64,000 nt of DNA, taken from assembly GCF_020073745.1 (NCBI RefSeq), contig NZ_JAIRAU010000002.1:17694-81693 (forward strand), written 5' to 3'. Each line of letters begins with the position of its first letter. Position 1 is the stretch's first letter. Positions 342 through 46,601 of this stretch are shown here, piece by piece. The position numbers were made by a program, and so were the translations under genes. This DNA comes from Nannocystis pusilla. Its GTDB lineage: Bacteria; Myxococcota_A; Polyangia; Nannocystales; Nannocystaceae. Below the pieces are notes generated by a model. It saw only the letters and a list, made by a program, of their open reading frames with translations, was not told the origin of the DNA and did no database searches.

Positions 342-1373
342 GTGAACAACGCAGCATCCCCGTCCACTCCCCCCGCTGACGCACCGCCGACCGCATGGAT
401 CGGGTACACGCTCGACGGTCGTTATCGCCTCCGGGAGCTCCTCGGCGAGGGCGGCATGGGGGCCGTGTTCACGGCGGAGCAGATCAGCCTCCACACGCTC
501 GTGGCGGTCAAGATGATCCACGCCGAGTACACGGGGAACGCTGAGATCTCCGAGAGGTTCCGCCGCGAGGCGATGGCGACGGCGAAGATCGATCACCCGA
601 ACGTGACCCGCGCGATCGACTTCGGCCGTCTACCGACCGGTGGGGCATACCTCGTCACGCAGTTGGTCCGCGGACCGACGCTGACCCAAACGATTGCCGC
701 CGGGAAACTGCCCTGGCGGAGGGCGTGCGAGATCGGGTTTCAGATCGCCGACGCGCTCGTGGCGGCTCACGGCGCGGGTATCATCCACCGCGATCTGAAG
801 CCCGACAACATCCTCCTCGAACGGCGCGAGGACACGTCGGTGGTCAAGGTCCTCGACTTCGGGCTGGCCCGCCTGGCCGAAGGGCCAGGCGCGACCCCAT
901 TGACGCGCCTCGGCACGGTGATGGGCACGCCCGGTTACATGGCGCCCGAGCAGGGCGCGGGCGAACCGACCGACGAGCGCACGGACCTGTACGCGCTGGG
1001 CGTCATCCTCTGGGAGGGCCTCGCGGGCCGGGAGCTGTGGGACGGCGGCGAGCTGTCGGACATCCTGCTCCGTCAGCTCTCGCAGCCACCGCCGTCGCTG
1101 GCCGCCGAGATTCCAGATCTGCCGCCCGAACTCGATCGCCTGCTCCTCAAGTTGCTCGCGCGCGAAGCTCGCGACCGCCCGCAGACCGCTCGCGAGGTCC
1201 GAGACGCCCTGCGGGCCTTGGCTCATCGTCCGACGCAGGCAGTCGTGGCGCCCACGCCCACGCCCGCGCCCACGCCCACGCCGCCTCCGTCGAACCGAGG
1301 TTTGGTCGGCTTCCTCGCGGTGTTCGCCGGCCTGGCCCTGCTCGTCATCGTGCTCTGGGCGGTGCGGCAGTAG
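342..1373 (+). CDS. Hanks-type Ser/Thr protein kinase with a C-terminal TM anchor
   Basis: Glycine loop LGEGGMGAVF, VAVK lysine, catalytic loop HRDLKPDNILL, DFGLAR and GTPGYMAPEQ. A PTPTPAPTPTPP linker is followed by a hydrophobic C-terminal helix. The ORF opens with GTG. Confidence 0.9.
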   Translation: MNNAASPSTPPADAPPTAWIGYTLDGRYRLRELLGEGGMGAVFTAEQISLHTLVAVKMIHAEYTGNAEISERFRREAMATAKIDHPNVTRAIDFGRLPTGGAYLVTQLVRGPTLTQTIAAGKLPWRRACEIGFQIADALVAAHGAGIIHRDLKPDNILLERREDTSVVKVLDFGLARLAEGPGATPLTRLGTVMGTPGYMAPEQGAGEPTDERTDLYALGVILWEGLAGRELWDGGELSDILLRQLSQPPPSLAAEIPDLPPELDRLLLKLLAREARDRPQTAREVRDALRALAHRPTQAVVAPTPTPAPTPTPPPSNRGLVGFLAVFAGLALLVIVLWAVRQ

Positions 1374-5276: not shown

Positions 5277-6413
5277 ATGCTGAGCGGACTCGCGCCGGGG
5301 GTGCTCCTCGAAGATCGCCATCGCATCATCACCGCGGGCCTCGGTGGGGCGCGCGACCGCGGCGCAGGGGCCACGCCACTCTCCCCGCTCATCATGATGG
5401 CACAGGCGGGTCCTCCGACGCCCCCGCCTCCGGACAAGTGGAGCGAGCTCCTCAGCGAAGAGCCGTCGGCGCCGCCCGGACCACCTCCCGCGCCGCGCGT
5501 TCCAGCACCGCCACCGCCGGGTAAGCGACGGTCGCCTGGGCTCATCGCTGTCCTCGCGCTGCTCGGACTGGGTGTGGTCGCTTTCGGCGTTCGCATGGCG
5601 AGTCCGGACGGGGACGAACGAGCGGAGCCGCCGGCGGCAGCATCCGCGGCCCCGGAGAGCGCTGATTCGTCATCGCCGAACGATACGCCTCCGGCCGATT
5701 CGTCTCCGTCCAGGGCGGGAGAGCCCGGCGCGGGAGAGCCGCGAGCTGGAGAGCCCGGCGCGGGAGAGCCGGAAGCCGCAGAGCCGGGGTCTGAGAGGTC
5801 CGGGTCCGAGAAGTCCGGGTCGGGGCAATCCGAGTCCGAGAAGTCCGGGTCGGGGCAATCCGATTCCGAGAAGTCCGGGTCCGAGAAGTCCGGGTCGGGG
5901 CAATCCGGGTCCGAGCAATCCGGGTCCGAGAAATCCGAGTCCGGGCAATCTGGATCGGAGAAGTCCGAATCAGCGAACACTTCCGCAGCGAAGTCCGAAT
6001 CGGCGGAGACTCGGGAGGCCGATCGGCAGAAACAATCACGCGGTGAGGCGGAGCCCGCGGCGCAAAAGACCTCCGAGAAGGCGCCCGCCGACAAGGGCTC
6101 GTCGGAGTCGAGTCCCGCGAGCGAGCAAGGGCCGCCGCCGGCCATGCCGGATCCGCCGACCGAGCCCGAGCACCTGTTCCGCCCGCATCGCGACGCGATC
6201 GCCAAACAATGCAAAAATCCGCGCGGGCTCGCCAACGCGCTCGTCGTCCTGCGGATCACGATCGAGGGGACCCGGGTCGCGCACGCCGAGGCGAACTTCA
6301 GCGAAGACAGCGCTCGCCAGGCGGCCGCCGGCTGCATCGAAACATATCTGCTCACCAAGGTGAAAGTGCCGACGACCTACACGGGGTCGAGGAGCTTCTC
6401 GTACGCGTTTTGA
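5277..6413 (+). CDS. Membrane-anchored protein with a low-complexity (SGSEKSGSGQSE)n tandem-repeat region and a conserved C-terminal domain
   Basis: Pro-rich N-terminus, one TM helix (LIAVLALLGLGVVAFGV), degenerate SGSEKS/SGSGQS repeats encoded by 30-33-nt nucleotide tandem repeats (~5716-5975), then a non-repetitive C-terminal ~90 aa. The start could instead be the ATG at 5394 (MMAQAG). Confidence 0.55.
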   Translation: MLSGLAPGVLLEDRHRIITAGLGGARDRGAGATPLSPLIMMAQAGPPTPPPPDKWSELLSEEPSAPPGPPPAPRVPAPPPPGKRRSPGLIAVLALLGLGVVAFGVRMASPDGDERAEPPAAASAAPESADSSSPNDTPPADSSPSRAGEPGAGEPRAGEPGAGEPEAAEPGSERSGSEKSGSGQSESEKSGSGQSDSEKSGSEKSGSGQSGSEQSGSEKSESGQSGSEKSESANTSAAKSESAETREADRQKQSRGEAEPAAQKTSEKAPADKGSSESSPASEQGPPPAMPDPPTEPEHLFRPHRDAIAKQCKNPRGLANALVVLRITIEGTRVAHAEANFSEDSARQAAAGCIETYLLTKVKVPTTYTGSRSFSYAF

Positions 6414-6443
6414 CGCCGGGCTGCGGAGGCGTCGCGGACGGCT

Positions 6444-7151
6444 TCATCGGGTCGGTGCGGCGACCGGAGGTGTGAGCATGAGCCGCCGGCCCTCGAGGCG
6501 GGCGAGGAGCGCCGAGGCGAAGACCGTCAGGCCGACGAACTCGAGCGTCTCCTCGCACCAGTCGATCAGCGCGTAGCCGAAGCTGTCGTCGCCGTAGCGC
6601 TCGGTCCACCAGCCGAGCGGCAGCTCGAACAGCACCGCGCCGGTGACGTAGATCGCGCCCGCGAGGACGAATCGCCGGGCCGTCTCGGGGGACAGGCGCC
6701 GCAGGAAGCCCAGGAAGGCGAGGCCGAGCACCGTCACCAGGAAGCCGGCGGGGATGACCCAGTCGAAGTAGAGGACGCCGCCGACGTCGAACTGGCCGCT
6801 GAGCCGCTCGTGGAAGCCGACCGCCTCGTCGATCGAGATGAGCAGGAAGCCGAGCGCGAGCAGGCGCCAGAAGAAGCGGTCGCTAGCCTCGCCGGCGGCG
6901 ACCCAGGTCAGGAGCCCGGAGCACAGGAGCGGCAGGACGCTCGCGTACCACGACGGCATGTTGCCCTCGTAGCTGAGCGACCACAGGGAGATCGCCGGAC
7001 CTTCGTGCCCTCCGAGATGCCGCAGCAGCTCGACGGCCAGGCCCGCGAGGCTGAAGGCGATACTCGTGACGGCGAGGACCCGGCGCGCCACGAACACGGG
7101 AAGCTCGACCGTACCGGCTGGCGAACGCTCCTCTCCGACTTGCGACGACAT
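6444..7151 (-). CDS. Integral membrane protein, unknown function
   Basis: Five or six hydrophobic helices, high GC3, 235 aa. Confidence 0.55.
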
Positions 7152-7599
7152 ATGTCAATGATACCAGCCCGGGGTGTCTCCCTCGGGGCAGATGCGTGAC
7201 AGTTGGGCTTTGCGCTCTCACCGCCTGACCACGCGTCCGAGCAGGGTCCCACGGCTTCAGGACAACTCACGCCGGAAGCGGTGACCTCTTCCGCGGAGGG
7301 TGTCGATCATCCACGCGGGGGCGCCGAGCTTCTCAGGCAGGCGGTCGATCGGGACGCGACCTGTCGCTCAGGAGCCTGGTGGTGCCGGGATCGGAGCCGC
7401 GACCCGGGCGCGCGGTGGCGGCGAAACAGCCGGCGAAGCCGCGAGCAGGGTTCGCGCCCGGCCGGGTGAGGCAGGGCGACGCGGAGAAAGAAACCGAAGC
7501 CGTGCCCGGGCGGTCGGAGTGAGCTGGGGTTTCGCCGCAGCGTGCAGAGACAGGAATGACAGGACAGGGCCCGCGCGGGGATCCTCCGATTCGGAGACG

Positions 7600-8742
7600 A
7601 TGGTGATGCGACTGGACAGGTGCCTGATCGGTTGGCTGACGATATCCACCCTCGACGCGTTCGGCTGCGCGCCGGTCGCGGCCGCCAAGCCGGCCGCAGT
7701 GGCGCCCGCCGAGGCCAGCGGACCTGCGCGCGCCGTTCCGCCGCCGCGGCCGCCGAAGGGGCCGGACGGGCCGATCACGGCGGCCGAGCGCGACCAGGCG
7801 ATCGAGGCGATCGCGCGCGAGCTGACCGAGAAGTACGTGTTCCCGAAGAAGGCGACCGAGGTGGCGCGCGCGCTCCGGGCCCGCAAGAAGCGCGGCGAAT
7901 ACAATGGCATCACCACGGGCCACGCGCTGGCGACGGCGCTGACCGCCCATATCAACGAGGTGCTGTTCGACGCCCACTTCCACGTGCGGTTCAGCAAGGA
8001 GACGCTGCCGCCGCAGCGGCAGCCCGGGCCGCCGTCGGCCGAGGATCTGGCGCGCTACGAGGCGTTCGCCAACCAGGTGAACGGCGGGTTCGAGCGGGTC
8101 GAGCGGCTGCCGGGCAACCTCGGCTACGTCGAGGTGCGGTCGTTCGAGTTCCCGGGGCGCGGCTTCACGGCGGCGAGCGCTGCGATGGACTTCGTGGCGG
8201 AGACCGACGGGCTCATCATCGACCTCCGTCGCAACGGCGGCGGGGCGCCCGAGGTGGTGGCGTACCTCTGCAGCTACTTCTTCGACGAGCCGGTGCACCT
8301 CAACGACCTGTACTTCCGGCCAGCCGACGCGACGCGCCAGTTCTGGACGGCGCCGGTGCCGGGCAAGGCGTATGTCGACCGCGAGATCTACGTGCTCACC
8401 AGCAAGAACACCGGGTCGGCGGCGGAGGAGTTCGCCTACAACCTGCAGAACCTCAAGCGCGCGACGATCGTCGGCGAGGTGACGTGGGGCGGGGCCAACC
8501 CCGGCGACATGGTCCGCCTCGGCGACCACTTCGCGGCGTTCGTGCCGACCGGACGCGCGATCAACCCGATCTCGAAGACGAACTGGGAGGGCGTCGGCGT
8601 GAAGCCCGACGTCGCGGTGCCGGCCGACGACGCGCTGCGCGTGGCCCAGGTCAAGCTGCTCGAGAGGCAGGTGGCGAAGGCGACGGACCCGCAGGCGAAG
8701 GAGACGCTCGAGGCGCGGCTGCGCGAGCTGCAGGCGAATTGA
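7600..8742 (+). CDS. S41 family peptidase (C-terminal processing protease / IRBP-like), secreted
   Basis: Signal peptide (MVMRLDRCLIGWLTISTLDAFGCAP). S41 signatures IIDLRRNGGGAPEVV and YVLTSKNTGSAAEEFAY. GGAGA RBS 5 nt before the ATG at 7600. The track ORF extends to 7300 but the upstream part is low-complexity. Confidence 0.8.
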   Translation: MVMRLDRCLIGWLTISTLDAFGCAPVAAAKPAAVAPAEASGPARAVPPPRPPKGPDGPITAAERDQAIEAIARELTEKYVFPKKATEVARALRARKKRGEYNGITTGHALATALTAHINEVLFDAHFHVRFSKETLPPQRQPGPPSAEDLARYEAFANQVNGGFERVERLPGNLGYVEVRSFEFPGRGFTAASAAMDFVAETDGLIIDLRRNGGGAPEVVAYLCSYFFDEPVHLNDLYFRPADATRQFWTAPVPGKAYVDREIYVLTSKNTGSAAEEFAYNLQNLKRATIVGEVTWGGANPGDMVRLGDHFAAFVPTGRAINPISKTNWEGVGVKPDVAVPADDALRVAQVKLLERQVAKATDPQAKETLEARLRELQAN

Positions 8743-8863: not shown

Positions 8864-9460
8864 TCAGGCGAAGAGCAGGGCCATCATGTGGTCGTCGACG
8901 AGCGCGCCGTCGTCGCGGAGGACGAACGCGCGGCGGGTGCCCTCGAGGCGGAAGCCGAGCGCGTGGTACAGGGCGAGGGCGCGGTGGTTGTCGGCGCGGG
9001 TGTAGAGCTCGACGCGGAGGACGCGGCCGCCGTCGGGGTCGCGGTGGTCGCGGGCCCAGGCGAGGAGATGGGTGAGCAGCGCGCGCCCGAGGCCGCGGCC
9101 CTGCGCGCGCGGGTGGACGCCCATGCCGAGGACGGCGACGTGGCGGAGCATGCGGAACGGCAGGCGCACCAGCGACGCCTCGCCCAGCAATTCGCCGTCG
9201 TCCTGGGCGGCGACGAGGGCGAAAGCGGCGCCGGAATTGGCGCGCTTCTCGGCGTACGCGGCGAGGTCGGGCGGCAGCTCGTCGGGGTACTTCACGACGC
9301 CGTCGCGGGCGTCCACGATGGCCTGCTCGAGCGCGTACAGGCCCGCGTCGTCGCCCTCGGCGGCGGCCCGGAGGGTGCAGCGACGACCGTCGGTGAGCTG
9401 GACGGTGACTGGCGCGAAGGACATGACGGACATGGAGGCGTGGTCGGGCGAGGCTGTCAA
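8864..9460 (-). CDS. GNAT family N-acetyltransferase (last gene of the RiPP-like operon)
   Basis: GNAT motif VHPRAQGRGLGRALLTHLL and C-terminal YHALGFRLEG. Its start overlaps the stop of the upstream TldD-like gene by 4 nt. Confidence 0.75.
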   Translation of the reverse strand: MTASPDHASMSVMSFAPVTVQLTDGRRCTLRAAAEGDDAGLYALEQAIVDARDGVVKYPDELPPDLAAYAEKRANSGAAFALVAAQDDGELLGEASLVRLPFRMLRHVAVLGMGVHPRAQGRGLGRALLTHLLAWARDHRDPDGGRVLRVELYTRADNHRALALYHALGFRLEGTRRAFVLRDDGALVDDHMMALLFA

Positions 9461-10581
9461 GGGCGGGCGATCGGGCGCAGGGTGGCGGCGCTCAGGGCCA
9501 GGTGCGGGGCGCCCTGGCTGACGGGCAGGTTGTTCTGGCCGTCCTTGTCGCAGCCGAGCGCGGAGTCGAAGAAGGTGAGGTCGTCGGCGATGCCGGCGAG
9601 CCGGGCGAGCGTGGCGAGCTTGTCACCGACGAGGTCGAAGCGGCGCAGGACCTCGCCGGTCGGCCGGCCGTCGCGGATCCGCAGGCCATACGCGGGGCGG
9701 AGGACGAACTCGCGGCCGGCCGAGCCGCCGCCGATCACGCCGCGGCAATAGATGGCGTCGGCCTGGTCCGCGAGCAGGGCCGCCGGCGACCGCCCGCCGG
9801 GCTCGACGTAGGTCACCGCCATGCGCGGGATGGCGGGCGCGTCGCCGACCCGCCGCGCGTGACCCGAGCTGTCGACGCCGAGCTGCCGGGCGCTGGCGCG
9901 GCTGTGCAGCAGGCCGCACCAGACGCCGTCGCGCACGAGCGAGGTGGCGCGCGCCGGGACGCCCTCGTCGTCGACGTCATAGCCGCCGACGCGACCGGCG
10001 AGGCGCGGATCGTCGACCACGTGGAGCGGCAGCTCGGTCCAGCGGTGCCCGAGCTGGATCCCCGCGGGGGCCATGTACGCGGCGTAGTTGTCGGCCTCGG
10101 AGCTGTGGCCGATGCACTCGTGCACCAGCGTGGACGCGAGCCACGGGTCGAGGACCACGGGGCAGCGCGTGACCTCGGCGAGCGGGACGCCGTCGACGGC
10201 GGCCCGCACCTCGCCGGTGATCGCGTCGCTTGCGAGCGCGGCGTGGAGCTGGCGGGCCAGCGCGTCGGTGGCGGCCTCGGGGACGCAGGTGTGCCAGACG
10301 ACGGGGATCCGCGAGCGCGAACCGGCGACGACGAGCCGGATCACGAGGGCGGTGTGCGCGACGCATGCGTCGCCGCGGAGCCGCGCGCGCGACTCGAGCG
10401 AGAGCTCGTGCGTGACGACCTCGGGGCCGAGCGTGGCGGCGAGCGCGAGCTGCAGCGCCTCGGCGGCAGCGGCGAGCTCGGACCAGGCGAGCAGCCCGGG
10501 GTGCTCGTGCGTCGCGCCGAACCACCGCGGCGCGGCGCCGCGGGCCAGGAGCACGCTGCGGTGGAGGCGGACGTCGGTCAT
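9457..10581 (-). CDS. TldD/PmbA family metallopeptidase-like protein
   Basis: HECIGHSSE metal-binding-like motif and the C-terminal family signature GCDKDGQNNLPVSQGAPHL (GxC-K-GQxxPVSxGxP). Translationally coupled on both sides. Confidence 0.6.
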   Translation of the reverse strand: MTDVRLHRSVLLARGAAPRWFGATHEHPGLLAWSELAAAAEALQLALAATLGPEVVTHELSLESRARLRGDACVAHTALVIRLVVAGSRSRIPVVWHTCVPEAATDALARQLHAALASDAITGEVRAAVDGVPLAEVTRCPVVLDPWLASTLVHECIGHSSEADNYAAYMAPAGIQLGHRWTELPLHVVDDPRLAGRVGGYDVDDEGVPARATSLVRDGVWCGLLHSRASARQLGVDSSGHARRVGDAPAIPRMAVTYVEPGGRSPAALLADQADAIYCRGVIGGGSAGREFVLRPAYGLRIRDGRPTGEVLRRFDLVGDKLATLARLAGIADDLTFFDSALGCDKDGQNNLPVSQGAPHLALSAATLRPIARP

Positions 10582-12707
10582 GTCGTGAGCGCCCGTTCGA
10601 CGCCGGCGAGCAGGGCCTCTCCGGCGGGCGTGAGGCGGGCGTGCTGCCGCAGGGTGGACATCGCGGCGGCGACCCGGTCCTCGATCTTTCGCAGGTAGCG
10701 ATCCATCGGCGCCTCGGCGAGCGCGGGGACGCCGGCCGCGAGCATGCGGCGGGTCAGCTGAATGTCGTGGAGGAACGAGTACACGCCGTGCACGAGCGCC
10801 GTCAGCGGCCGCGGGATGGCGACGAAGGGCGACGGGTGGAGCTCGTGGTCGGGGTTGGTGAGGAGCGGGTAGACGTCGAGGAGTGAGCTGAGCTTGTTGT
10901 GCGCGGCCTCGTGGACGAGCGTCTGCGCGGTCATGTAGTCGGGACGGGCGCTGGCGGTGATGAGGCCGCGAAAGCCGGCGACGCTGGCGTTGTGCGGTTG
11001 CAGGCCGCGCGAGCGTACGGGCAGCAGGAGGGCGACGCTGTCCTCGAGCTCGGCGCGGGCGGCGGGCCAGTGGTCGCCGACGCGCTGCAGGCCCTCGGTC
11101 ATCGCGGCTCGCCAGGCCGCGAGCGCGGCGTCGTCGATGTCGAGGAACAGCGGGCTGACGCGGCCCTCGACGTCCTCGCGCGCCGGGAAGAACTCGGTGT
11201 ACCAGCGGCTGGTCCGCAGCAGGAGCACGCGGGAGCCGGGCGCCCTCGGCAGCGGCACGACCTCCCAGCCGTCGCCGCGGGCAGGTTCACGCAGCGCGGC
11301 GCGAGGGATCGCCAGCGCCTCGCCGAGGCGGAGCTCGTCGCCGGCGGCGACGGCGGTGACGACCTCGGGCAGCGGCTCGCGGGTCCGCAGCGCGCATGCC
11401 AGTGAGAGCAGGTGGATCTCGGTCGAGTCCGTGGGGGCGAGCAAGACGGGCTCGTCCGCGGGGAGCGCGTCGTGGACGAACAACGCCGGCAGCAGGGCGA
11501 CGCCGAGGTGACGCACGAGCAGCTCGAGCTGCGGCGGGAAGGCGAACTCGAGCGCCTCGGCCATGCGCCAGATCCATGAGGTGAGCTCGGGCCGCAGCAG
11601 GAGGTCGCGCAGGACGTCGGGGGCGAGCCGCTGCACGCCGGCGATCAATGTGGCCAGCGAGCGCCGGTGGGCCTCGTCGTGCAGCTTGGCGTGCGCGCGG
11701 CCGCAGAGGACGAGCAGGCGCTTGAGGTACGGGCGCCAGGCGTAGTCGCGCAGCAAGCGATGGGCGGCGCCGTCGGGCTCGGGGTGCGCGAGCCGGGTCG
11801 GGTCGAGCGGCGGCAGCGGGGCCTGCAGCAGCGTCCGCACGCGGGCCATGTCGATCGGCAGCGCGTCGGCCGACGAGGCGTGGCGCGGGGGGGCGACGCC
11901 GGCGGCCTGCCGCAAGCGGGTGACCCGCGCCTGCCACCACCGCCGCGCCAGCGCGCGCGCGACCTCGGGGTCGCGCAGCGCCTCGCCGAGGTCGGACAGG
12001 ACCCGGGCGAGCGCATCCGGCAGCGCGGCCTCGGCGGACGCGAGATCGACGGGGACGGCGGGCAGCGGCGCCCAGAAGCGCTCGTCCTCCGAGAGCAGGG
12101 CCGCGAGCGTGGGCACGATCTCGCCGTGCGCCGACTCGGCGTCGACGAGCAGCGAGACGCTCGTCGACGGGCCGCGCGACAGCCCCCAGTGCGGCCAGAA
12201 GATCGGGATGTACAGCAGATCGCCCGGCTCGAGCGTGTACTCGATCGCGCCCGCGGGCATGGGCACCGGGCCGAGCTCCGGGTGCTTGAGCATGCGCAGG
12301 CGCTGCTGATCGCGCGGGATGATGTCGGGCGGGTGCAATCGCCACAGCTTGGCGCCGGACTGCTGGAGGATGAAGTTGTCGCTGTAATCGTAGTGACTGC
12401 CGATGCTGTGCCCGTCCCGCATCTTCGAGCCGTCGAAGCCGACGCAGGCGCTGCCGAACAGGGGCACGAGCCGCTGGGCGAGCGCCCGCAGCCGCGGCAC
12501 CACGGCGTCGATGCGCTGGGCGAACACGACGTCGTCGCCCGAGCGCTTGACGCGGTCGGGGTCGAGCCGGGACAGCCGCGCGATGGCGTCGTCGAGCTCG
12601 TCCTCCGTGACGCCGGGCGTGAGCAGGCGCGAGGCGCCGCCGCGGATGAGCAGCGGGCGGCGGCGCCAGTGGGTGGCGAAGAAATCGTCGGGCAGCCAGG
12701 TGCTCAC
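10578..12707 (-). CDS. Cupin/JmjC-like 2OG-oxygenase domain fused to a C-terminal HExxH-motif domain (aKG-HExxH-type peptide hydroxylase-like)
   Basis: N-terminal HxD...H cupin pattern (GSHYDYSD ... IFWPHWG) within a double-stranded beta-helix-like region. C-terminal VHEAAHNKL (HExxH). GTG start at 12707 overlaps the TGA of the upstream TPR gene (GTGA); the track ORF extends to 13106 but that extension is Arg-rich junk. Confidence 0.6.
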   Translation of the reverse strand: MSTWLPDDFFATHWRRRPLLIRGGASRLLTPGVTEDELDDAIARLSRLDPDRVKRSGDDVVFAQRIDAVVPRLRALAQRLVPLFGSACVGFDGSKMRDGHSIGSHYDYSDNFILQQSGAKLWRLHPPDIIPRDQQRLRMLKHPELGPVPMPAGAIEYTLEPGDLLYIPIFWPHWGLSRGPSTSVSLLVDAESAHGEIVPTLAALLSEDERFWAPLPAVPVDLASAEAALPDALARVLSDLGEALRDPEVARALARRWWQARVTRLRQAAGVAPPRHASSADALPIDMARVRTLLQAPLPPLDPTRLAHPEPDGAAHRLLRDYAWRPYLKRLLVLCGRAHAKLHDEAHRRSLATLIAGVQRLAPDVLRDLLLRPELTSWIWRMAEALEFAFPPQLELLVRHLGVALLPALFVHDALPADEPVLLAPTDSTEIHLLSLACALRTREPLPEVVTAVAAGDELRLGEALAIPRAALREPARGDGWEVVPLPRAPGSRVLLLRTSRWYTEFFPAREDVEGRVSPLFLDIDDAALAAWRAAMTEGLQRVGDHWPAARAELEDSVALLLPVRSRGLQPHNASVAGFRGLITASARPDYMTAQTLVHEAAHNKLSSLLDVYPLLTNPDHELHPSPFVAIPRPLTALVHGVYSFLHDIQLTRRMLAAGVPALAEAPMDRYLRKIEDRVAAAMSTLRQHARLTPAGEALLAGVERALTT

Positions 12708-13942
12708 AGTCCTGCGTCCTTTCGTGTCGCCTGCAACCGCTCGAGCCGCGCGCGGACCTCGTCGAGCTCGTGGGCGCGGCCGAGGCGGGCCGCGGCGATG
12801 CTGGCGAGCTGGTACGGCTCGGCTCGCATCGGGATCCGCTCGAGGCAGCGCAGCGCGGCGGCCAGGCCGGCCGCGAAGTCGCCGCGCCGGCACTCGGCGA
12901 GCGCGCGCAGGGAGAGGCTGTGGGCCTGCATGGTGTCGACGAGGTCGCCCTCGGCGCGCGCGAACCACTCGGCCGCCGCGCTCGGCTCGCGCCGCGCGAG
13001 GTGGCGCAGGCCGAGCTCGTAGGCCGGCCAGGTCGCGCGGTCGCCCAGCCTGCGCGCCTCGGCGTGGGCCTCCGAGGCCTCCTCGAGCCGGTCGGCGCGG
13101 GCGCACAGCACGGCGCGCAGGGCCGTGCCGGGGCCGCCCAGGGGGTCCAGCTCGCTCGCGGTGAGCTCGGCGAGCTCGGCGTGCGAGGCCGGCGTCGTGC
13201 GGGCGACGACGGCGAGGCTGCGCGCGGCCTGCTGCGAGCGCGGGGTCGAGGGGGCGAAGGCGAAGCCCATCGCCGCGGCCAGCCGGGCGCCGAGCGGCCG
13301 CAGGCGCTCGGGCATGAAGCCGCTGGCGATCGAATGGGTCATCGCCGGCGGCTCGTCGAGCAGGCCGGCGGCGGCCAGCTCGGCGGCGACGGCGGCTGGC
13401 TCATGGGTCAGGTCGGGGCCGCCGTCGTGAAAGAAGTCGAGGTCGACGTCGAGCCGGGCGCCGCGCAACCCGAGCCGCGACAACCTGCGCAGCGTGGTCG
13501 CCTCGACGCGCAGCCCGCCGACGCGCGCGCGGGCGGCGACGTCGTCGGCGACGAAGCTGGCGAGCACCTCGTGCCCGTGGTCGGGCAGCAGCGACAGCGC
13601 CGACCACAGCACCTCCGCGAGCTGGGCGGCGCTCCGCGGCCGCGGCTCGGGCAGGACCCACACCACGCGCTCGATCAGCCCGAGGTCGGCGGCGGCGTAG
13701 AGGAAGCTGTCGAGGCCGTAGGCGAACCGGTCGTCGTCGCGGAACGGGAGATCGCGGTGAAGCGGGTCGAGACCGCCGCCGCGGGCGCCGTCGCGGACGC
13801 GCGCGAGCTGGTCGGCGGCGATCCGCTTGAGGTCGAGGTGATGATCGAGGACGACCACGCACTCGCGCGACCAGCCCTGGCGATGCCAGTGCGCGAGCAC
13901 CTCGCCGTGCTCCTCGAAGGCGCGGACGAGACCCCGCGTCAC
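12704..13942 (-). CDS. Hypothetical protein with C-terminal TPR-like repeats
   Basis: C-terminal half has Ala/Leu-rich helical repeats typical of TPR. The N-terminal ~250 aa is unrecognised. 4-nt overlaps with both neighbours. Confidence 0.5.
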   Translation of the reverse strand: MTRGLVRAFEEHGEVLAHWHRQGWSRECVVVLDHHLDLKRIAADQLARVRDGARGGGLDPLHRDLPFRDDDRFAYGLDSFLYAAADLGLIERVVWVLPEPRPRSAAQLAEVLWSALSLLPDHGHEVLASFVADDVAARARVGGLRVEATTLRRLSRLGLRGARLDVDLDFFHDGGPDLTHEPAAVAAELAAAGLLDEPPAMTHSIASGFMPERLRPLGARLAAAMGFAFAPSTPRSQQAARSLAVVARTTPASHAELAELTASELDPLGGPGTALRAVLCARADRLEEASEAHAEARRLGDRATWPAYELGLRHLARREPSAAAEWFARAEGDLVDTMQAHSLSLRALAECRRGDFAAGLAAALRCLERIPMRAEPYQLASIAAARLGRAHELDEVRARLERLQATRKDAGL

Positions 13943-14739
13943 GCGATCACCCCCAGACGCGCGAGGCCCTCGCCGAGCGCGGCGAGCCTCTCGACGGTGA
14001 CCACCACACCCTGGCCCGCGAGCGCGGCGATTACGGCGTCCGGCCGCGCCCGCCCGTGTTCCAGCAGCGCCGCGATGATCGGCGTGGCGGGGCCGCGGAC
14101 GAAGCGCGCGGGCGTGGCGGCGTAGAGGAACAGCGCCGCGCCGGACGGATCCGGGGCGACCGGGCGCTGCGTCAAGGTGCGGACGAACTCGAGCGGATAG
14201 CGCTGCACCGCGTAGTGGGCGGCGCCGTTGTGCCGGATCAACGCGGTGCGCACGACGAAGCTCGGGTCCCGGTTGAGCACGAGGATCGAGAGGAGTCCGC
14301 TCAGGAACTCGTGGGTCAGCAGATCGACGGCGTGCGGTCCGGCGGCCCGCAGCGCGTCGTCACCGCGCAGGAACTCGAAGAAGGCCTCCTCGACCGAGAT
14401 CCCGCGCGGGCCGTACGGCACCTGCCGGCTGTCGGCGTACTGCGGCGAGGCGACGAAGCGCTCGACCAGCGCGGCCGCGCCGTGACCGGCGCGCTCCAGC
14501 TGCGCGAACAGATCGGGGAAGGTGCTGCGCAGGCCGCCGTCGTACTCGACGTTGCCGCGCAACAGGTCGCGCCCGATCGCGCCGCCGATGGCGACAAGCT
14601 CGTCCGGATCGATGGTGCGCAGGTGGGCCTGCGCCGAGGGCTCGAGCCCGAGATGTTCGAGGCGGCCGGCGAGGAACCGGTCGCGCGCGCGGCGATCGTG
14701 GAGCAGGCGGTAGAGCGCGGTCTGTAAGGTCTCAGGCAT
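13939..14739 (-). CDS. Putative partner protein of the MNIO/DUF692 enzyme (DUF2063-like?)
   Basis: 266 aa, sits immediately downstream of and overlapping the DUF692-like gene, as MNIO partner subunits do. N-terminus LQTALYRLLHD...FPDLFAQL resembles DUF2063-type partners. Assignment is by context. Confidence 0.4.
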   Translation of the reverse strand: MPETLQTALYRLLHDRRARDRFLAGRLEHLGLEPSAQAHLRTIDPDELVAIGGAIGRDLLRGNVEYDGGLRSTFPDLFAQLERAGHGAAALVERFVASPQYADSRQVPYGPRGISVEEAFFEFLRGDDALRAAGPHAVDLLTHEFLSGLLSILVLNRDPSFVVRTALIRHNGAAHYAVQRYPLEFVRTLTQRPVAPDPSGAALFLYAATPARFVRGPATPIIAALLEHGRARPDAVIAALAGQGVVVTVERLAALGEGLARLGVIA

Positions 14740-15691
14740 GGGCCTCCTCGCCGAGCCAGGCGGCGGCCATGGCCGCGAGCCGCTCGAAGTTGGCGACCGA
14801 CTTGGGCACCAGCTCGCCGTCCTCGAAGTAGCGCGGATCTTCGTAGGTGATCGCGCGCAGGTGAGGGCAGCGCGGCAGCAGGTAGGCGAGCAGCTCGAGC
14901 TGCTCGTCGAGCAGGACGCCGTGGTGAAGGTCGCGGAACTTGCCGCCGGAGATCTGGCAGCCGGACAGGTGAATCTCGTGACAGGCGAGGAGCGGCAGGC
15001 GATCGATCGCCTCGAAGCGGCGCGGACCCACGCGGCCCTGCGACCACTGGTAGCTGAGGAGGTGGCCGACGTCGAGCGTGACCGGCGAGCCGGTCTCCTC
15101 GGCGACGACGCGGAAGAACTCGAAGGCGTCCATCGCCCCGATCGTGATCGTGGCGCCCTCGGTGAAGCCGGGGAACTCGACGCACACCGGCGCGGCCAGG
15201 CGCGACTGCCAGCCGCGGACGTTGCGGATGCAGGCGGCCAGCCCCTCGGCGGTCAAGAACGGCGGCAGCGGGTACGGCAGCGACTTGCCGGCGATCGACC
15301 ACAGCCCGAGGTCCTCGACGATCCATGCGAAGCCGTAGCGCTCGACGAGCGCGTTGGTGAACGCGGCCACCGCGTCGAACTCGATCGGATCGAGGGTCGC
15401 CATGTTGAGCAGGGTGTGGTGCAGCGCGCGGTGTTCGATGCGCGGCGCCGCGGCGAACAGGGCGTCGTAGGCGGCGAAGTAGTCGCCGGCGCGCAGGCGG
15501 TTGCGGTTGCCCGGCTGGAACGCGAACACGAGGTAATGGAAGCGCTCCTGGTGGCGCGCGAGGAAGTTGGCGACCCGCGGGGTGATGGTGTCGCCGCGCT
15601 CGGGATCGCGGGTGAAGCCGATCCGCTCGCCCCACGGCAGGTCCATGCCGACTCCGAGGCCGAGCCGCGGCGTGGTCGGTCGTCGCGTCAT
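14732..15691 (-). CDS. DUF692 / multinuclear non-heme iron oxidase (MNIO; MbnB/TglH-like) TIM-barrel enzyme
   Basis: N-terminal LGLGVGMD (the DUF692 GlGl start), WIVEDLGLW...LPYPLP, LDVGHLLSYQW and EIHLSGCQISGGKFRDLHHG (the family's eiHLAGh...DtHg block). The ATG at 15691 overlaps the rSAM stop (ATGA); the track ORF extension to 15832 is Arg-rich and rejected. Confidence 0.6.
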   Translation of the reverse strand: MTRRPTTPRLGLGVGMDLPWGERIGFTRDPERGDTITPRVANFLARHQERFHYLVFAFQPGNRNRLRAGDYFAAYDALFAAAPRIEHRALHHTLLNMATLDPIEFDAVAAFTNALVERYGFAWIVEDLGLWSIAGKSLPYPLPPFLTAEGLAACIRNVRGWQSRLAAPVCVEFPGFTEGATITIGAMDAFEFFRVVAEETGSPVTLDVGHLLSYQWSQGRVGPRRFEAIDRLPLLACHEIHLSGCQISGGKFRDLHHGVLLDEQLELLAYLLPRCPHLRAITYEDPRYFEDGELVPKSVANFERLAAMAAAWLGEEAHA

Positions 15692-17679
15692 GCGGACCTC
15701 CGGGCCCGCACCGGCGTGCCCGCCCCGGTCGCGAGCAGTCGCGCGAGCACGCGGGCGGCCTCGTCGCCGTCGGCCCGCAGCAGCTCGCCGTCGTGCCGGA
15801 CGGCGGGCGGCAAGCGATAGATCGTCTGCCACAGCAAGTTGGCGAGGAACGGCGCGGCCGCGCCGTCACGCCAGGTGGCGCGCACGACCCGGACCCAGGG
15901 GTGCAGCTGGACCGCGTACACGGGCTCCGCGGGCGGCGGCGGCCCGCGGCGCTCGGGCGGGACGTCGTCGTTCTTGTGGGGATGGACGTTGTGATGAATG
16001 GCGAGGAAGCGCCGCTGCATCGCCTCGAAGGGCGGGGCGCCGCGCGCCTCGAAGCGCAGGCCGACGCGACCGAGGCCGTAGCTGAGCAATTCGTTGCCCT
16101 GCCAGCGCTCGCGGTCGGGGATGACGACGCCGAATTCCTCGGGGCGCTCGGCGAGCGGGGTGCCGGGCTCGCAGGTGAGCATCTGCATGACGTCGATGGC
16201 GATCTTGCCGGCGTTGGCGGCGAGGAACGCCTCGGAGGCGGCGACCTCCTCGGCGGTCTCGTCGAGGATCCCGCCCATGACCGACAGCCGCAGCTCGATG
16301 CCGACGGCGTGCAGGTTGTCGACGATCGGCTGGTAGTCGGCGGCGTCGACGCCTTTGTCCAGCCGATCGAGGAGGCGCTGCGAATTGGTCTCGTAGCCGA
16401 CCGCCATCTGGACGCAGCCGAGGGCGCGCAGCTCACGGCAGACCTCGAGGTCGCGGAGCTGGCGCTCGAAGCGGCAGCGGACGCTGAACTCGATGGCGAC
16501 GCCGCGGCGACGGAGCAGGCGCATGGCCCGACGCACGACCGGCAAGTTGGTCATCTCGTCGACGAAGTTGATGCGGCGGACGTCGTAGGTGCGGACCAGG
16601 TGCTCGCATTCGTCGGCGATCTGGCGCGGCGACTTCTGCTGATAGCCGACGCGGCGCGAGCGGGCGCCGTACGAACAAAAGGCGCAGCGGCCCCAGAAGC
16701 AGCCGATGCCGGTGACGAGCGGGAGCTGGACCGCGTCCATGACGTAGCGCTGCCACGGCAGATCGGTGAAGTCGGGCGGGGGCAGGGCGGCGATCGGCGG
16801 CGGCGGATCGTCCCGCGAGGGCGCGCGGCGGTCGAGCCACACCACGGAGGGCACGTCGCTCCACGCGGCGGCGCCCGCGGCCGCGCGCGCGAGCGCGACG
16901 AGGGTGGCCTCGCCGGCGCCGGTCGCCAGCGCGTCGACGACCCCGGCGATCGCCGGGACGCGGGCCAGCGCGTCGTGACGCAGCATGATCTGCGGGCCGC
17001 CGAGCACGATGACGGCGTCGGGGCAGCGCGCCCGGATCCGCCGCGCCAACCACAGCGCCGGCCCGATCTGGCTGTAGAACGCCACCGAGATGCCGACGAC
17101 CGCCGGACTCGATCGCGCGAGCGCGTCGTCCAGCAGCGCCGCGAGGGCGCGCGCGGCGAGGTCGTCCGCGTCCGGCTCGTCGGCGGCGGTGAGCCGGGCC
17201 GCGAGCTGCGACAGCGAGGTCGACGAGAACTTCAGGGCCGAACGCTCGAGCAACAAGTCGATCGCCTGGCCGGCGAGTCGCAGCGCCGAACGGCTGTCGA
17301 TCGCCGCCGCGGCCTTGTCGAACACGCGGGCGCGCAGCGAGTCGCAGATCGACAGCAGGTAGCGCGCCATCGCCGAGCGATAGGCCCGCTCGAGCGGCTG
17401 CGGCTCCGCCTCGGCGGCGAGCTCCGGCCCGAGGTAGGCGCGCAGCGTCGCGGGCGCGAGCAGGGCGTGGCACAGCTCGATGTTGAGGTCGCGCGGTCGC
17501 ACCGCGACGCCTTCGCGCCGCAGGTACGCGGTCAGGACCGGCAGGCTGAGGTACGGGAACAGCCGCGCCTCGGTGGCCGGGGGGAACAGCAAGAGCACCT
17601 CGGGCGGGCGGACACTCGCGCGTATGTCGACGGAGGCTGGCATGTCGGTGGGGCGACCGGCGGGCCCGACGCCATGCAA
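15688..17679 (-). CDS. B12-binding domain radical SAM protein (class B rSAM, likely methyltransferase-type)
   Basis: N-terminal cobalamin-binding-like region (VVGISVAFYSQ...VIVLGGPQI) and a radical SAM cysteine cluster GCFWGRCAFCS. 663 aa. Confidence 0.8.
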   Translation of the reverse strand: MHGVGPAGRPTDMPASVDIRASVRPPEVLLLFPPATEARLFPYLSLPVLTAYLRREGVAVRPRDLNIELCHALLAPATLRAYLGPELAAEAEPQPLERAYRSAMARYLLSICDSLRARVFDKAAAAIDSRSALRLAGQAIDLLLERSALKFSSTSLSQLAARLTAADEPDADDLAARALAALLDDALARSSPAVVGISVAFYSQIGPALWLARRIRARCPDAVIVLGGPQIMLRHDALARVPAIAGVVDALATGAGEATLVALARAAAGAAAWSDVPSVVWLDRRAPSRDDPPPPIAALPPPDFTDLPWQRYVMDAVQLPLVTGIGCFWGRCAFCSYGARSRRVGYQQKSPRQIADECEHLVRTYDVRRINFVDEMTNLPVVRRAMRLLRRRGVAIEFSVRCRFERQLRDLEVCRELRALGCVQMAVGYETNSQRLLDRLDKGVDAADYQPIVDNLHAVGIELRLSVMGGILDETAEEVAASEAFLAANAGKIAIDVMQMLTCEPGTPLAERPEEFGVVIPDRERWQGNELLSYGLGRVGLRFEARGAPPFEAMQRRFLAIHHNVHPHKNDDVPPERRGPPPPAEPVYAVQLHPWVRVVRATWRDGAAAPFLANLLWQTIYRLPPAVRHDGELLRADGDEAARVLARLLATGAGTPVRARRSA

Positions 17680-17709: not shown

Positions 17710-18021
17710 TCACTTGGTGAACAGCTTCGCGTGGGCGATGACGTGGCGGGAGACCTGCTCGATCGGGTTGCTCTCCGCCGCCTCGTCGAGGATCCGCTGC
17801 TGCGCGGTCTTCTCGTCGATGCCGTGTTGCTTGGCCAGGAGCGTCGACGCCTCCTTGAGGACGTTGAAGGTCCGCTCGTCGAGCTCGTCGAGCGGCTGCG
17901 CGACGGCGAAGCGGAACGCGTGGAAGGCGTTGCCGACCTTCAGCTCGTTCGATTCGATCACGTCGAGCTGCTCGAGCTCCGCCAGCTGATTCACATCCTG
18001 CATGCTTGATTCGTATGCCAT
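17710..18021 (-). CDS. Candidate precursor peptide / small acidic protein (103 aa), first gene of the operon
   Basis: MAYESSMQDVNQLAELEQLD...SNPIEQVSRHVIAHAKLFTK, no Cys. GGAGGA RBS 5 nt upstream of the ATG at 18021. A 30-nt gap to the rSAM gene. High GC3. Confidence 0.5.
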   Translation of the reverse strand: MAYESSMQDVNQLAELEQLDVIESNELKVGNAFHAFRFAVAQPLDELDERTFNVLKEASTLLAKQHGIDEKTAQQRILDEAAESNPIEQVSRHVIAHAKLFTK

Positions 18022-18872
18022 AGATCCTCCAATTCGCCTGCGACGCGCGGGCGTTCGCCTGTCGCACCTATTCACGACAGCGCGGGAAAGCTAGCACGGT
18101 GTATGGAGCCCCTCAAGACCCATGACCGCGCGCGCGGGCAGGAGACGGCGGTGATTCGTTGGTGTCTGTCGACCACGCATTGCGCTGCGCAGTGTGTTGT
18201 TTCCGAGCGAATGCTCGCCGTGACGATTGCGAGCACTCGCCAGCGGCCGTCGATTCGCGCGAGATGCATCATTGCGCGGCGAGGCGCGGAGCGGTGCGGC
18301 CCCTGACGCGACCGCGAGCGGGGCGTGCAGGCCGGGGCCCTCGCCCCCGATTGGGGTCGACTGCACCGAGGCGCGGGCGCGCTTCGGTGCCACGCGGACG
18401 CCGTCGAGCTGCACGTACGGTCCCTTGGACTGGATGAATGTTGCCGACAATGCGACGCGGGTCTTCGCAGAGTCGCTCGTCGGCATCGCATCGTGACAGA
18501 GGGCGTACGGCATCCCGCTCTTGAGCGCGCTCCCGGCATTGCTCGACGGCCGGCGCTCGCACGCGCACGCGTCGGCCCCGCGCAGGTGTGCGGCCCGATC
18601 ACGTCCGGCTCTCTGTCGACGACGGCACGGCAGACGTTGGCGGGGACGAGCCTCGCGGCGGTCCCCTCGACGTCCTCCGGCAGATCACGTGCCGACTTCC
18701 AGTTCTTGCAGGAGTACCAGTCGACGGGCAGCCGGCGAGCGCGTTCGGCGTGAATGCGACCGAGGGCGGTCTACGTCACGTTTGACGCCCTGAAGCCCGT
18801 GTGCGAGGATGCCCTCGCAATGTCCACGGATGCCCAAGCGCGCGCAGGTCGTCGCGTCTCGAGATGTGCGTG

Positions 18873-20405
18873 ATGGAGGTCGCGATTCGCATCGGCCTCG
18901 CCCTCGCGCTCTCTCTCCTCGTGATCGCGCTGTTCAGGCTCGGCCGCCGCGCCCCGGCCCGGCCCGAGGATGAGGTGCGCCCCCGGGGATGGAGCTCGAT
19001 CGTCGGCAATGCGCTGTTCCTCGCCGCCTTGTGGGCCGTGGTCGGCGTCATCGCGGCGTTCATGGCTTTCGGCGGCAACCTGGTCGACGCCGTCCCACCG
19101 GTCGCCGAGTTCGTCGAAATACGGGGCGAGCCCGGCGACGCAGCGCCCGCGTGCGGCCCGCCTGGCCCGCGTGGGCGGCCACACCTCGTCGAGGTCGTCC
19201 ACAGCACCGACCAGGGGCCCTGGCTCGCGCAGGCCGCCGACGCCTTCATGGAGCAGTGCCCGAACGTCCAGCTCCGGCTGACCGCGCGCGATGACTTCGA
19301 GGCTGCCAGCGCCATTCTCCGCGGTGAACTGCGACCGACGCTGTGGGCGCCGGCCGAGGAGCTGTCTCTGCGCTATCTGGACATCCGGTGGCGCGAGCAG
19401 TCGGCCGAGTCGCTGTTCCGGATCGACGAGCGGCGCCCCCTCGTCCGCTCGCCGCTCGTCGTCCTGCTCCACGAGAAGCAGTTCCGGGCGCTGCGAGCGA
19501 TCCGCGAGGCCGACGGCGATGGGGTGGGGTTCTGGGTCGACGCGCTCTGTCCGACAATTCCTCGCGCACCCGCGCTCGACGGTGTGCTGGAGAAGGACAT
19601 GCTCCCGGGCAACTGGCTCGACTGGTACCAACAGCGGAACCCGCCGCCGCCGCAGCCCGACCCGCGGCTCGTGACGAAAAAAGCGCGCTCCGCCCCTGCG
19701 GTCCCGCCGACGCCCGCCGCTCCGCTGATTCCGACGCCCGAAGAGCTGGGCTCCTGGGGCCGCGTCAAGCTCGGGTTCCCCGCGCCCAACTCCGCCGGCG
19801 GCCTTGCGACGCTCCTGCTGATGGCCCGGCAGCACCTCCTCGCCGACACCGCCGGCGACATCGCGCTCGCGCTCGAGCGCGAGGGCGAGGTCCTGCAGCG
19901 GTGGCTGCGGCGCTGCCACGCGGGGCGTGACGTCTGGTTCGGCTCCGCGGCCCTGCTGACCGACCATTTCTTCGACCTCGGCCCGACGAGCTATGACGGC
20001 GTCGTCACCTACGAGAGCCTCGTCTTCCCGATCCTCGCGCGACTCAGCGCCGACGAGCTCGGAGAGGTCCGGGTGTACTACCCGTCGACGACCCTCGTCG
20101 CCGAGCACCCCGCGGTGCTGATGTGGCCCGACGACGAGGGGCGCGCCCTTGAACTCGACGCCGCGCGGCGCTGGCTGGAGTACCTCGATCGCCAGGAGGT
20201 CCAGCAGAGCGCGATCACGCACGGCCTGCGCCCGGGGCGACTCGAGCGCCCGCTCAGCGCCTTCGACCTCGAGAGGAACCCCTTCCTCGACCTGCGTCGC
20301 TTCGGCATCGAGCTCGAGCCGACCATCGAGGAGCCGCCGCGGCCGGACGGGTCGGTGCTGCGCAGGCTCCTCGAGCTGTGGCGAGACGCGACCGGCCGGA
20401 ATTGA
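18873..20405 (+). CDS. Membrane-anchored protein with a large extracytoplasmic domain, unknown function
   Basis: Two N-terminal hydrophobic helices, then a ~450-aa soluble domain. Divergent from the RiPP-like operon. The start could be as early as 18801. Confidence 0.55.
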   Translation: MEVAIRIGLALALSLLVIALFRLGRRAPARPEDEVRPRGWSSIVGNALFLAALWAVVGVIAAFMAFGGNLVDAVPPVAEFVEIRGEPGDAAPACGPPGPRGRPHLVEVVHSTDQGPWLAQAADAFMEQCPNVQLRLTARDDFEAASAILRGELRPTLWAPAEELSLRYLDIRWREQSAESLFRIDERRPLVRSPLVVLLHEKQFRALRAIREADGDGVGFWVDALCPTIPRAPALDGVLEKDMLPGNWLDWYQQRNPPPPQPDPRLVTKKARSAPAVPPTPAAPLIPTPEELGSWGRVKLGFPAPNSAGGLATLLLMARQHLLADTAGDIALALEREGEVLQRWLRRCHAGRDVWFGSAALLTDHFFDLGPTSYDGVVTYESLVFPILARLSADELGEVRVYYPSTTLVAEHPAVLMWPDDEGRALELDAARRWLEYLDRQEVQQSAITHGLRPGRLERPLSAFDLERNPFLDLRRFGIELEPTIEEPPRPDGSVLRRLLELWRDATGRN

Positions 20406-46408: not shown

Positions 46409-46601
46409 GGCCCGATGCCAGTCCCCGAGCGGGCTCGGGAGGGGTCAGGAGGGGTCGCTGCTCCTCTCGCAGAACGCCGATGATAGGGGCGTTCGGCCAG
46501 CGGTCGTGCGGATCTCGGGCCACGATGGGACCGACGCGCAGCGCGGCCGGCGTGGCGGAGCACAGGCGAGGGCTGCTCGGAATGGTGCGGCGTCGCGGCG
46601 A

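Follow-up and report, generated by a model that had tools for sequence, protein, structure and literature searches.

A predicted two-domain peptide hydroxylase joining JmjC and aKG-HExxH oxygenase folds in a biphenomycin-type gene cluster of Nannocystis pusilla

Introduction

Does a single gene of the myxobacterium Nannocystis pusilla encode one peptide hydroxylase with an accessory motif, or two oxygenases joined in one chain, and on what would the product act? The gene lies at 10578-12707 in a 64,000-nucleotide stretch of contig NZ_JAIRAU010000002.1 (hereafter the window, meaning the whole stretch analyzed, with a G+C content of ~70-75%). An initial annotation had described it as a cupin/JmjC-like oxygenase fused to an HExxH-motif domain and had placed it in an operon for a peptide made by the ribosome and modified after translation (RiPP). 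Our analyses indicated that the encoded protein is likely a peptide hydroxylase with two functions in two domains, in which the two tailoring oxygenases known from biphenomycin biosynthesis are naturally fused.

Biphenomycins are potent antibiotics against Gram-positive bacteria; it took until 2025 for their RiPP pathway to be solved. The bip and bpm clusters encode a precursor, a major facilitator superfamily (MFS) transporter, an arginase of the tetratricopeptide repeat (TPR) type, a B12-dependent radical S-adenosylmethionine (SAM) enzyme and an oxidative enzyme that depends on multinuclear non-heme iron (MNIO) with its partner protein, together with the JmjC protein BipG/BpmG, the alpha-ketoglutarate (aKG)-HExxH hydroxylase BipH/BpmH and a TldD-type protease (PMC12707348, PMC12257519). 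BipG, BpmG and PbsQ are JmjC enzymes that gamma-hydroxylate the ornithine made from the central Arg (PMC12707348, PMC12257519), and BipH has been assigned the beta-hydroxyl on the C-terminal ortho-tyrosine, which is the difference between biphenomycins A and B (PMC12707348). Sg_bipG has a length of 816 bp and Sg_bipH one of 1050 bp, and BpmG and BpmH are listed at 288 and 351 aa in Table S8 of PMC12257519. Proteins of the aKG-HExxH family are Fe/2-oxoglutarate dioxygenases in which the HExxH motif binds iron and whose fold is unlike that of canonical 2-oxoglutarate enzymes (PMC13060819, PMC12636437); the natural aKG-HExxH fusions known are to radical SAM enzymes (PMC12636437). The searchable literature yielded no mention of a JmjC-HExxH fusion, or of myxobacterial or Thermoactinomycetaceae clusters of the biphenomycin type. 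Both domain families had been described before, as had the pathway and this type of cluster, and the fusion is a variant of the pathway solved in 2025.

Results

Two oxygenase folds in one chain

The gene is a single minus-strand open reading frame (ORF) whose limits were exactly those of the initial annotation (Table 1). In the same frame, the sequence upstream of 12707 is Arg/Pro-rich, out-of-frame in character and overlaps the preceding gene; we place the start at 12707 because the homologues begin there too. The product is a protein that has already been deposited, as WP_224190628.1 of N. pusilla (100% identity).

Profile searches identified two families in the chain, each with a score above its curated cut-off: aa 99-192 matched PF08007 (JmjC_2, previously named Cupin_4) with 56.5 bits (E 2.5e-15; gathering score 22), and aa 537-702 matched TIGR04267 with 87.2 bits (E 1.3e-24; cut-off 40). 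The proposed fusion of a cupin/JmjC oxygenase to an HExxH domain was borne out by these matches. [quoted passage not shown] As that domain is in itself an iron-binding Fe/2-oxoglutarate oxygenase (PMC13060819, PMC12636437), the gene would encode two oxygenases, with two predicted hydroxylations, and not one hydroxylase with an accessory motif. Based on sequence and on the structural model described below, the protein consists of two unrelated Fe/2-oxoglutarate oxygenase folds, with two predicted metal sites of different architecture.

When 1.84 billion representative proteins were searched by profile, 5,871 matched at E <= 1e-3; the best 150 of them, P0001, P0002, P0004, P0005 and the window protein itself were then classified (n = 155). 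Both profile parts were matched in 57 of these 155 proteins (~570-780 aa), 62 had the N-terminal half only (mostly 250-350 aa, profile positions ~1-270) and 36 the C-terminal half only (~350-460 aa, profile positions ~282-719). As the stand-alone forms end or begin there, the domain boundary was placed at aa 270-285, within a variable, low-confidence linker. A first AlphaFold model, built from six sequences, had a predicted local distance difference test (pLDDT) score below 50 through the JmjC core. The second was built from 71 sequences, after the addition of ~65 stand-alone JmjC relatives from a G-domain alignment search (103 matches), and had a mean pLDDT of 89.8 and a predicted TM-score (pTM) of 0.71; pLDDT fell below 50 in just three segments of it, aa 275-280 (linker), 515-517 and 569-576 (both in the C-terminal domain).

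The N-terminal (G) domain contained the HxD...H double-stranded beta-helix signature that the initial annotation had reported: H105, D107 and H173 lie inside the PF08007 match and within a double-stranded beta-helix that was modelled with high confidence (pLDDT 90-98 over most of aa 11-200). These residues and K120 align with H125, D127, H187 and R140 of YcfD (PDB 4ccl), which we take to be the metal ligands and the binder of the 2-oxoglutarate C5-carboxylate, respectively. H105 and H173 were each kept in 56 of the 57 fused relatives and D107 in all 57. H105 and D107 were also present in 60-61 of the 62 relatives with the G half only, in which the triad and K120 as a whole were kept in ~56-61; the K120 position was Lys in 53/57 fused and 56/62 G-only proteins. 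Searches of PDB sequences with this half identified the Rhodothermus YcfD-like 4csw (E 6e-13), E. coli YcfD 4ccl (E 9e-11), 4lit (E 1e-10) and NO66 (E 1e-6), and Foldseek searches with the model retrieved 4csw, 4ccl and 4lit (E ~1e-11) as well as 1vrb and NO66, the E values spanning 1e-11 to 1e-8 in all.

The C-terminal (H) domain carries VHEAAHNKL at aa 598-606, as had been noted. In the 62 intact H domains, H599, E600 and H603 were 100% conserved, and nine positions (R580, R588, H599, E600, H603, N604, S626, R633 and H640) were at least 94% conserved; all nine residues are present in the window protein, as in 32 of the 36 stand-alone H enzymes. H640 is a candidate for the third metal ligand because H599, H603 and H640 disappear together in degenerate H domains. 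The closest PDB sequences by phmmer were ChlH (8s5f, E 5.6e-7) and a radical SAM-HExxH protein (22nu, E 1e-5), with which the HExxH, SP(F/W) and RP motifs and a downstream His align, the metal ligands of ChlH being those assigned from conservation. The modelled half was most similar by Foldseek to SjiH (22ob, E 3.5e-12, TMt 0.68) and ChlBHExxH (8s5f, E 1.3e-11, TMt 0.76). As the JmjC triad, K120 and the nine H residues are all kept, both catalytic sites look intact.

The fusion itself is genuine, as shown by its conservation, by selection and by the same architecture in 57 of the 155 best relatives. The 57 fused proteins span three phyla, and the fused ORF is present in Nannocystis radixulma, Nannocystis sp. 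SCPEA4, three Sorangium strains, Thermoactinomycetaceae and actinomycetes. Relative to N. radixulma, dN/dS was 0.38 for the G domain, 0.20 for the linker and 0.17 and 0.38 for two parts of the H domain (overall 0.27). In a neighbour-joining tree of G domains, fused and unfused forms were interspersed; we draw no conclusion on the number of fusion origins from this tree, as it was made without bootstrap and includes metagenomic fragments.

Public names of the fused protein cover one domain of the two and so hide one predicted catalytic domain. Some gene models also truncate the JmjC domain: RefSeq models of 614/615 aa (WP_263429295.1 from N. pusilla, WP_276599785.1 and one from Sorangium) begin at M96 and drop JmjC residues 1-95 (window 12422-12707, minus strand).

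The fused gene lies in a biphenomycin-type cluster

Judged by its encoded sequences, the cluster is a biphenomycin-type RiPP cluster, with an AFHAFRF precursor, an MNIO and its partner, a B12-radical SAM enzyme, a TPR protein and a TldD-type protease (Table 1). AFHAFRF is a conserved motif of biphenomycin-type precursors (PMC12257519), and in the window it occurs in the precursor MAYESSMQDVNQLAELEQLDVIESNELKVGNAFHAFRF, which continues for 65 aa more. ELKVG[NG]AFHAFRF was encoded in all of the related loci L001-L008, and the Sorangium precursor has FHSFRF. Comparison of the loci by tblastn showed that the gene order A-D-E-F-C-G/H-I recurs, with some loci rearranged or without certain genes.

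The matches to PF05114, PF04055 and PF02310 confirmed that the fused gene stands in a RiPP operon beside MNIO and radical SAM genes. The methylation that the initial annotation had predicted for the radical SAM enzyme was not upheld, as the B12-radical SAM enzyme of the biphenomycin pathway forms the biaryl C-C cross-link and performs no methylation (PMC12707348, PMC12257519). The window radical SAM protein was 40-47% identical to the syntenic gene products of L002-L008; its exact start is uncertain (TTG at 17679 or ATG at 17643). The TPR-type protein, at 412 aa, is close in size to BpmC, which is listed at 413 aa in Table S8 of PMC12257519. Neither family nor PDB searches yielded a significant match for the TPR protein, the MNIO partner or the follower peptide; a UPF0489 match (E 0.064) was weak and was not used. 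The genes are coupled translationally: the start of the fused gene overlaps the stop of the gene upstream (GTGA), its stop overlaps the ATG of the TldD-like gene (ATGA), and the latter is coupled via TTGA to a GNAT gene, the final gene of the operon.

Proposed function and comparison with known systems

The two halves match the stand-alone G and H proteins in extent and size, and for this reason we regard the window protein as BipG plus BipH in one chain. By analogy to the bip, bpm and pbs pathways, the MNIO and its partner would ortho-hydroxylate both core Phe residues, the TPR-type arginase would convert Arg37 to ornithine, and the B12-radical SAM enzyme would form the biaryl bond. The JmjC domain would bind Fe(II) via H105, D107 and H173 and 2-oxoglutarate via K120 and place a gamma-hydroxyl on the ornithine side chain, and the aKG-HExxH domain, with a second Fe(II) held via H599, H603 and probably H640, would hydroxylate the beta-carbon of the C-terminal ortho-tyrosine. 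The TldD-type protease would finally trim the leader and follower. The substrates, regiochemistry and order of steps in this scheme are taken from the homologous pathways, and the activity of both domains is likewise predicted. The peptide hydroxylation that the initial annotation had added to the pathway remains the best prediction, as judged from sequence and analogy.

The likeness of the G domain to BipG, BpmG and PbsQ extends to the JmjC_2 family, an intact HxD...H triad, the AFHAFRF precursor and the syntenic place after the TPR-arginase gene. The characterized references (WP_062020578.1, WP_388423691.1, GenBank PV659837 and PbsQ) were represented in our comparisons by the G and H genes of the Streptomyces loci L006-L008; to these stand-ins the G domain was 38-39% identical. 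Similarly, the H domain shares with BipH and BpmH the TIGR04267/IPR026337 family, the HExxH motif and the type of cluster, and was 34-35% identical over ~390-437 aa to the stand-alone H genes of L006 and L007. The difference is one of architecture: BipG (271 aa) and BpmG (288 aa) stand alone, whereas their counterpart here makes up aa 1-268 of a chain of 709 aa, and BipH (~349 aa) and BpmH (351 aa) exist as proteins of their own, whereas here an H region of ~420 aa is joined covalently to the JmjC domain.

ChlBHExxH and SjiH have the same fold as the H domain, and in them, too, an aKG-HExxH domain is naturally fused with a different RiPP-tailoring enzyme. However, their partner is a radical SAM cyclophane synthase and not a second Fe/2-oxoglutarate oxygenase, they are 16-19% identical to the H domain, and their substrates are His and Asp. 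PflC and PosC also belong to the aKG-HExxH family, and their cluster too has an MNIO and a GNAT, but their chemistry is beta-hydroxylation of Gln with oxidative cleavage of the backbone (PMC12636437); they also differ in precursor, in their sequence similarity network cluster (BpmH was reported in a separate one) and in having no JmjC fusion. For the N-terminal half, the closest solved structures are those of YcfD/RoxA, NO66 and MINA53 (4ccl, 4lit, 4csw, 4diq and 4bu2), which share the JmjC double-stranded beta-helix with a helical subdomain, the triad and a basic 2-oxoglutarate-binding residue.

Several points weigh against our proposal. The orthology to BipG, BipH, BpmG, BpmH and PbsQ is argued from synteny and from 34-39% identity with the L006-L008 genes, and the predicted metal sites were assigned by residue alignment and predicted fold. 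As far as the accessible text of PMC12707348 and PMC12257519 goes, the regiochemistry of BipH and BpmH was itself assigned from product structures and from gene presence or absence, and no reconstituted reaction was seen there. The chemistry of aKG-HExxH enzymes is diverse, including His, Asp, Phe, Gln and Pro hydroxylation and oxidative backbone cleavage (PMC12636437, PMC13060819), and the Nannocystis precursor differs past FRF, with a 65-aa follower that opens with Ala. In addition, the H fold may also have a non-catalytic role, because the H domain is dead in about half of the relatives that are fused.

If our assignment is correct, the fusion of BipG to BipH would provide evidence of the Rosetta-stone type for both hydroxylases acting on the same intermediate, and the fused gene would be a compact, single-gene tool to install both hydroxyls in engineered producers. 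It would also place a biphenomycin A-type cluster in the myxobacteria (Nannocystis and Sorangium).

Fused relatives with a degenerate H domain

Of the 57 fused relatives, 26 have kept the HExxH motif, among them 22 in which all nine signature residues are present. The other 31 had lost HExxH and H640, often by substitution of His with Arg (e.g., LVRKLARTKL and LARELARTKF) or by divergence beyond alignment, and in these proteins the JmjC site was intact. Of the loci examined, those of Salinithrix halophila (L003) and a Thermoactinomycetaceae metagenome-assembled genome (MAG; L004) have a dead fusion alone, and that of an actinomycete MAG (L005) combines one live and one dead fusion with a stand-alone H gene. 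When dead fusions were compared in pairs, H proved to evolve faster than G and could still be recognized.

In the ~700-aa G ORFs of the Streptomyces loci, hhalign identified the C-terminal extension as a homologue of the H domain (probability 94.9%, E 4.7e-8, 329 columns), with LVTVLARSRW at the place of LVHEAAHNKL. In L006 and L007, the MFS gene is followed in addition by a live H gene that stands on its own. A simple splitting of G and H by the MFS gene in Streptomyces was considered and rejected based on the length of these G ORFs and their degenerate H extension.

That a dead HExxH domain has repeatedly been retained next to a live JmjC one hints at a docking or scaffold role that is non-catalytic, and suggests such a use for a fold that was recognized only recently. 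Based on these observations, we speculate that the aKG-HExxH fold is a partner of the JmjC ornithine hydroxylase that serves as a docking platform for the macrocyclic precursor. The window protein would then be a fully live dihydroxylase passing one substrate between two iron centres, and the dead forms would be the first pseudo-enzymes of the aKG-HExxH fold. We regard this extension of our proposal as tentative, and as possible rather than probable.

Alternative explanations

The diversity of aKG-HExxH chemistry raises the question of whether the H domain cuts the peptide. PflC and PosC cleave the backbone at an ARMD motif and a small first residue (Ala or Gly) favours that cleavage (PMC12636437), so that the Ala after FRF and the unusually long 65-aa follower in Nannocystis would be consistent with removal of the follower by oxidative (alpha-hydroxylation) or hydrolytic cleavage, leaving a C-terminal amide or acid after Phe38. 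However, the cluster keeps a TldD-type protease whose homologue BipI trims both the N- and C-terminal ends (PMC12707348), the residue after FRF (A, S/N, R or K) follows no visible pattern among clusters with an intact H, and the closest H relatives are in biphenomycin-type clusters, in which the extra beta-hydroxyl is the assigned function. We consider this cleavage unlikely. It appears very improbable that the H half is instead a conventional leader peptidase of the zincin type to which a hydroxylase is fused. It does have the HExxH motif, the aKG-HExxH fold has been called reminiscent of zincins, and PflC hydrolyses truncated substrates in a metal-dependent manner (PMC12636437). On the other hand, no peptidase family was identified for the fused protein by Pfam (E <= 0.01), by PDB sequence matches, which for this half were only ChlH and the radical SAM-HExxH protein, or among the top 50 Foldseek hits; the NCBIfam match is to a hydroxylase domain model. 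The initial annotation had contemplated a conventional zincin with a signal peptide; what we found were matches to ChlBHExxH and SjiH, no signal peptide at the N-terminus by eye, and a dedicated TldD-type protease gene directly downstream.

The degenerate relatives bear on a different possibility, that the HExxH-fold half serves the JmjC domain mainly as a module for docking or scaffolding that is not catalytic, with hydroxylase activity secondary or absent. The loss of the whole H signature in 31 of the 57 fused relatives, against retention of the JmjC triad in 56, the two loci with a dead fusion alone and the Streptomyces G extension without HExxH would all accord with it. Yet the window protein resembles the stand-alone H enzymes in having the complete signature, purifying selection acts on its H-C region (dN/dS 0.38), and stand-alone BipG, BpmG and PbsQ are active without an H domain (PMC12257519, PMC12707348), which makes this quite improbable for the window protein. 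As for the N-terminal half, many G-like relatives are labelled "50S ribosomal protein L16 3-hydroxylase" at JGI and the best solved homologues are of the YcfD type, as would be expected of a ribosomal oxygenase (RoxA/YcfD, the L16 Arg81 hydroxylase). But true RoxA-like proteins (370-385 aa, with PF20514) scored at most 78 bits, compared to 141-290 bits for the G clade, and the fused protein lacks the PF20514 winged-helix domain, stands in a RiPP operon and has a predicted peptide ornithine substrate. An assembly or frameshift artefact is opposed by the same fused ORF in several Nannocystis and Sorangium genomes, Thermoactinomycetaceae and actinomycetes, and by the overall dN/dS. Either of these, a ribosomal oxygenase or an artefact, is extremely unlikely. 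Thus, a bifunctional hydroxylase formed from the two biphenomycin tailoring oxygenases is the reading that we prefer.

Features of the window and related loci

Table 1. Positions of the fused gene, its predicted functional elements, the surrounding genes and the related loci. Positions are those of the window, except in the rows for related loci, where they are those of the named locus.
Feature	Position	Strand	Remarks
Fused hydroxylase gene	10578..12707	-	Single ORF, 709 aa + stop; GTG start 12707; TGA stop 10580-10578
G domain, aa 1-268	11904..12707	-	JmjC/ROX-type double-stranded beta-helix + helical subdomain; BipG/BpmG/PbsQ counterpart
H105-Y-D107, predicted first two ligands of 2-His-1-carboxylate triad	12387..12395	-	Aligns with YcfD H125/D127
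K120, putative 2-oxoglutarate C5-carboxylate binder	12348..12350	-	Aligns with YcfD R140
H173, predicted triad ligand three	12189..12191	-	Aligns with YcfD H187
Inter-domain linker, aa 269-289, AGVAPPRHASSADALPIDMAR	11841..11903	-	Variable length, poorly conserved in alignment
H domain, aa 290-709	10581..11840	-	aKG-HExxH oxygenase fold; BipH/BpmH counterpart
VHEAAHNKL, aa 598-606, predicted iron-binding HExxH (H599-E600-x-x-H603)	10890..10916	-	Inside TIGR04267 match
H640, candidate third metal ligand	10788..10790	-	Aligns with ChlH His; 94% conserved in intact H domains
Precursor peptide, 103 aa	17710..18021	-	GGAGGA Shine-Dalgarno; leader ...ELKVGNAFHA; core; 65-aa follower
Precursor core F36-R37-F38	17908-17916	-	Phe-Arg-Phe, inside motif ELKVGNAFHAFRF
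B12-binding radical SAM enzyme, predicted biaryl cross-linker	15688..17679	-	PF04055, PF02310; BipD/PbsB counterpart
MNIO	14732..15691	-	PF05114; BipE/PbsC counterpart; ATG overlaps radical SAM stop (ATGA); NCBIfam MNIO matches below cut-offs
MNIO partner protein, 266 aa	13939..14739	-	BipF/PbsD counterpart by synteny and 29-44% identity to L002-L008
TPR-type protein, 412 aa, predicted peptide arginase	12704..13942	-	BipC/BpmC/PbsE counterpart by synteny, size and 29-45% identity to L002-L008
TldD-type metalloprotease	9457..10581	-	PF19289, E 9e-38; BipI/PbsP counterpart; syntenic in L001, L002, L004, L006-L008, L010
GNAT acetyltransferase	8864..9460	-	PF00583; last operon gene; TTGA coupling
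Ser/Thr protein kinase	1443-3011	-
S41 peptidase	7300-8742	+	Opposite strand, just downstream of operon
Solute-binding-like protein	18801-20405	+	Divergent from precursor
Multimodular nonribosomal peptide synthetase, 5,769 aa	25399-42708	-	~7 kb from RiPP cluster
Multicopper oxidase	43168-45117	-
L001, Nannocystis radixulma			91-96% identity
L002, Thermoactinomyces daqus
L003, Salinithrix halophila	9956-12091		Dead-H fusion
L004, Thermoactinomycetaceae MAG	6169-8334		Dead-H fusion
L005, actinomycete MAG	10747-13074		Dead-H fusion
L006, Streptomyces	6046-8622		~700-aa G ORF with degenerate H
L007, Streptomyces	9464-12055		~700-aa G ORF with degenerate H
L008, Streptomyces	9341-12112		~700-aa G ORF with degenerate H
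L010, Sorangium sp. So ce693			Gene order as in window

The GNAT gene was present only in the Nannocystis loci among the loci compared, and Sorangium has an MFS transporter at that place; no MFS transporter adjoins the Nannocystis cluster. The GNAT protein had a weak match (E 0.01) to the HaaN model, a cyclophane-RiPP N-acetyltransferase, and may be involved in product acetylation or self-protection. Together with the 65-aa follower, it may point to a modified congener in Nannocystis.

The large nonribosomal peptide synthetase ORF had adenylation, condensation and peptidyl carrier protein domains within its first 2,000 aa. Two stretches of the window (46001-50000 and 60001-62000) had a G+C content of 0.77-0.79 and a strong positive GC skew, and large ORFs in these high-G+C stretches (e.g., 46216-48573 and 49310-51961) had no Pfam match.

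The Nannocystis follower appears helical by eye and was less constrained than the leader (dN/dS ~0.68 relative to N. radixulma), and the followers of the other clusters are 1-13 aa in length. The complete Sorangium precursor is 51 aa, and the Thermoactinomycetaceae precursors of L002 and L004 have two FHAFRF cores each.

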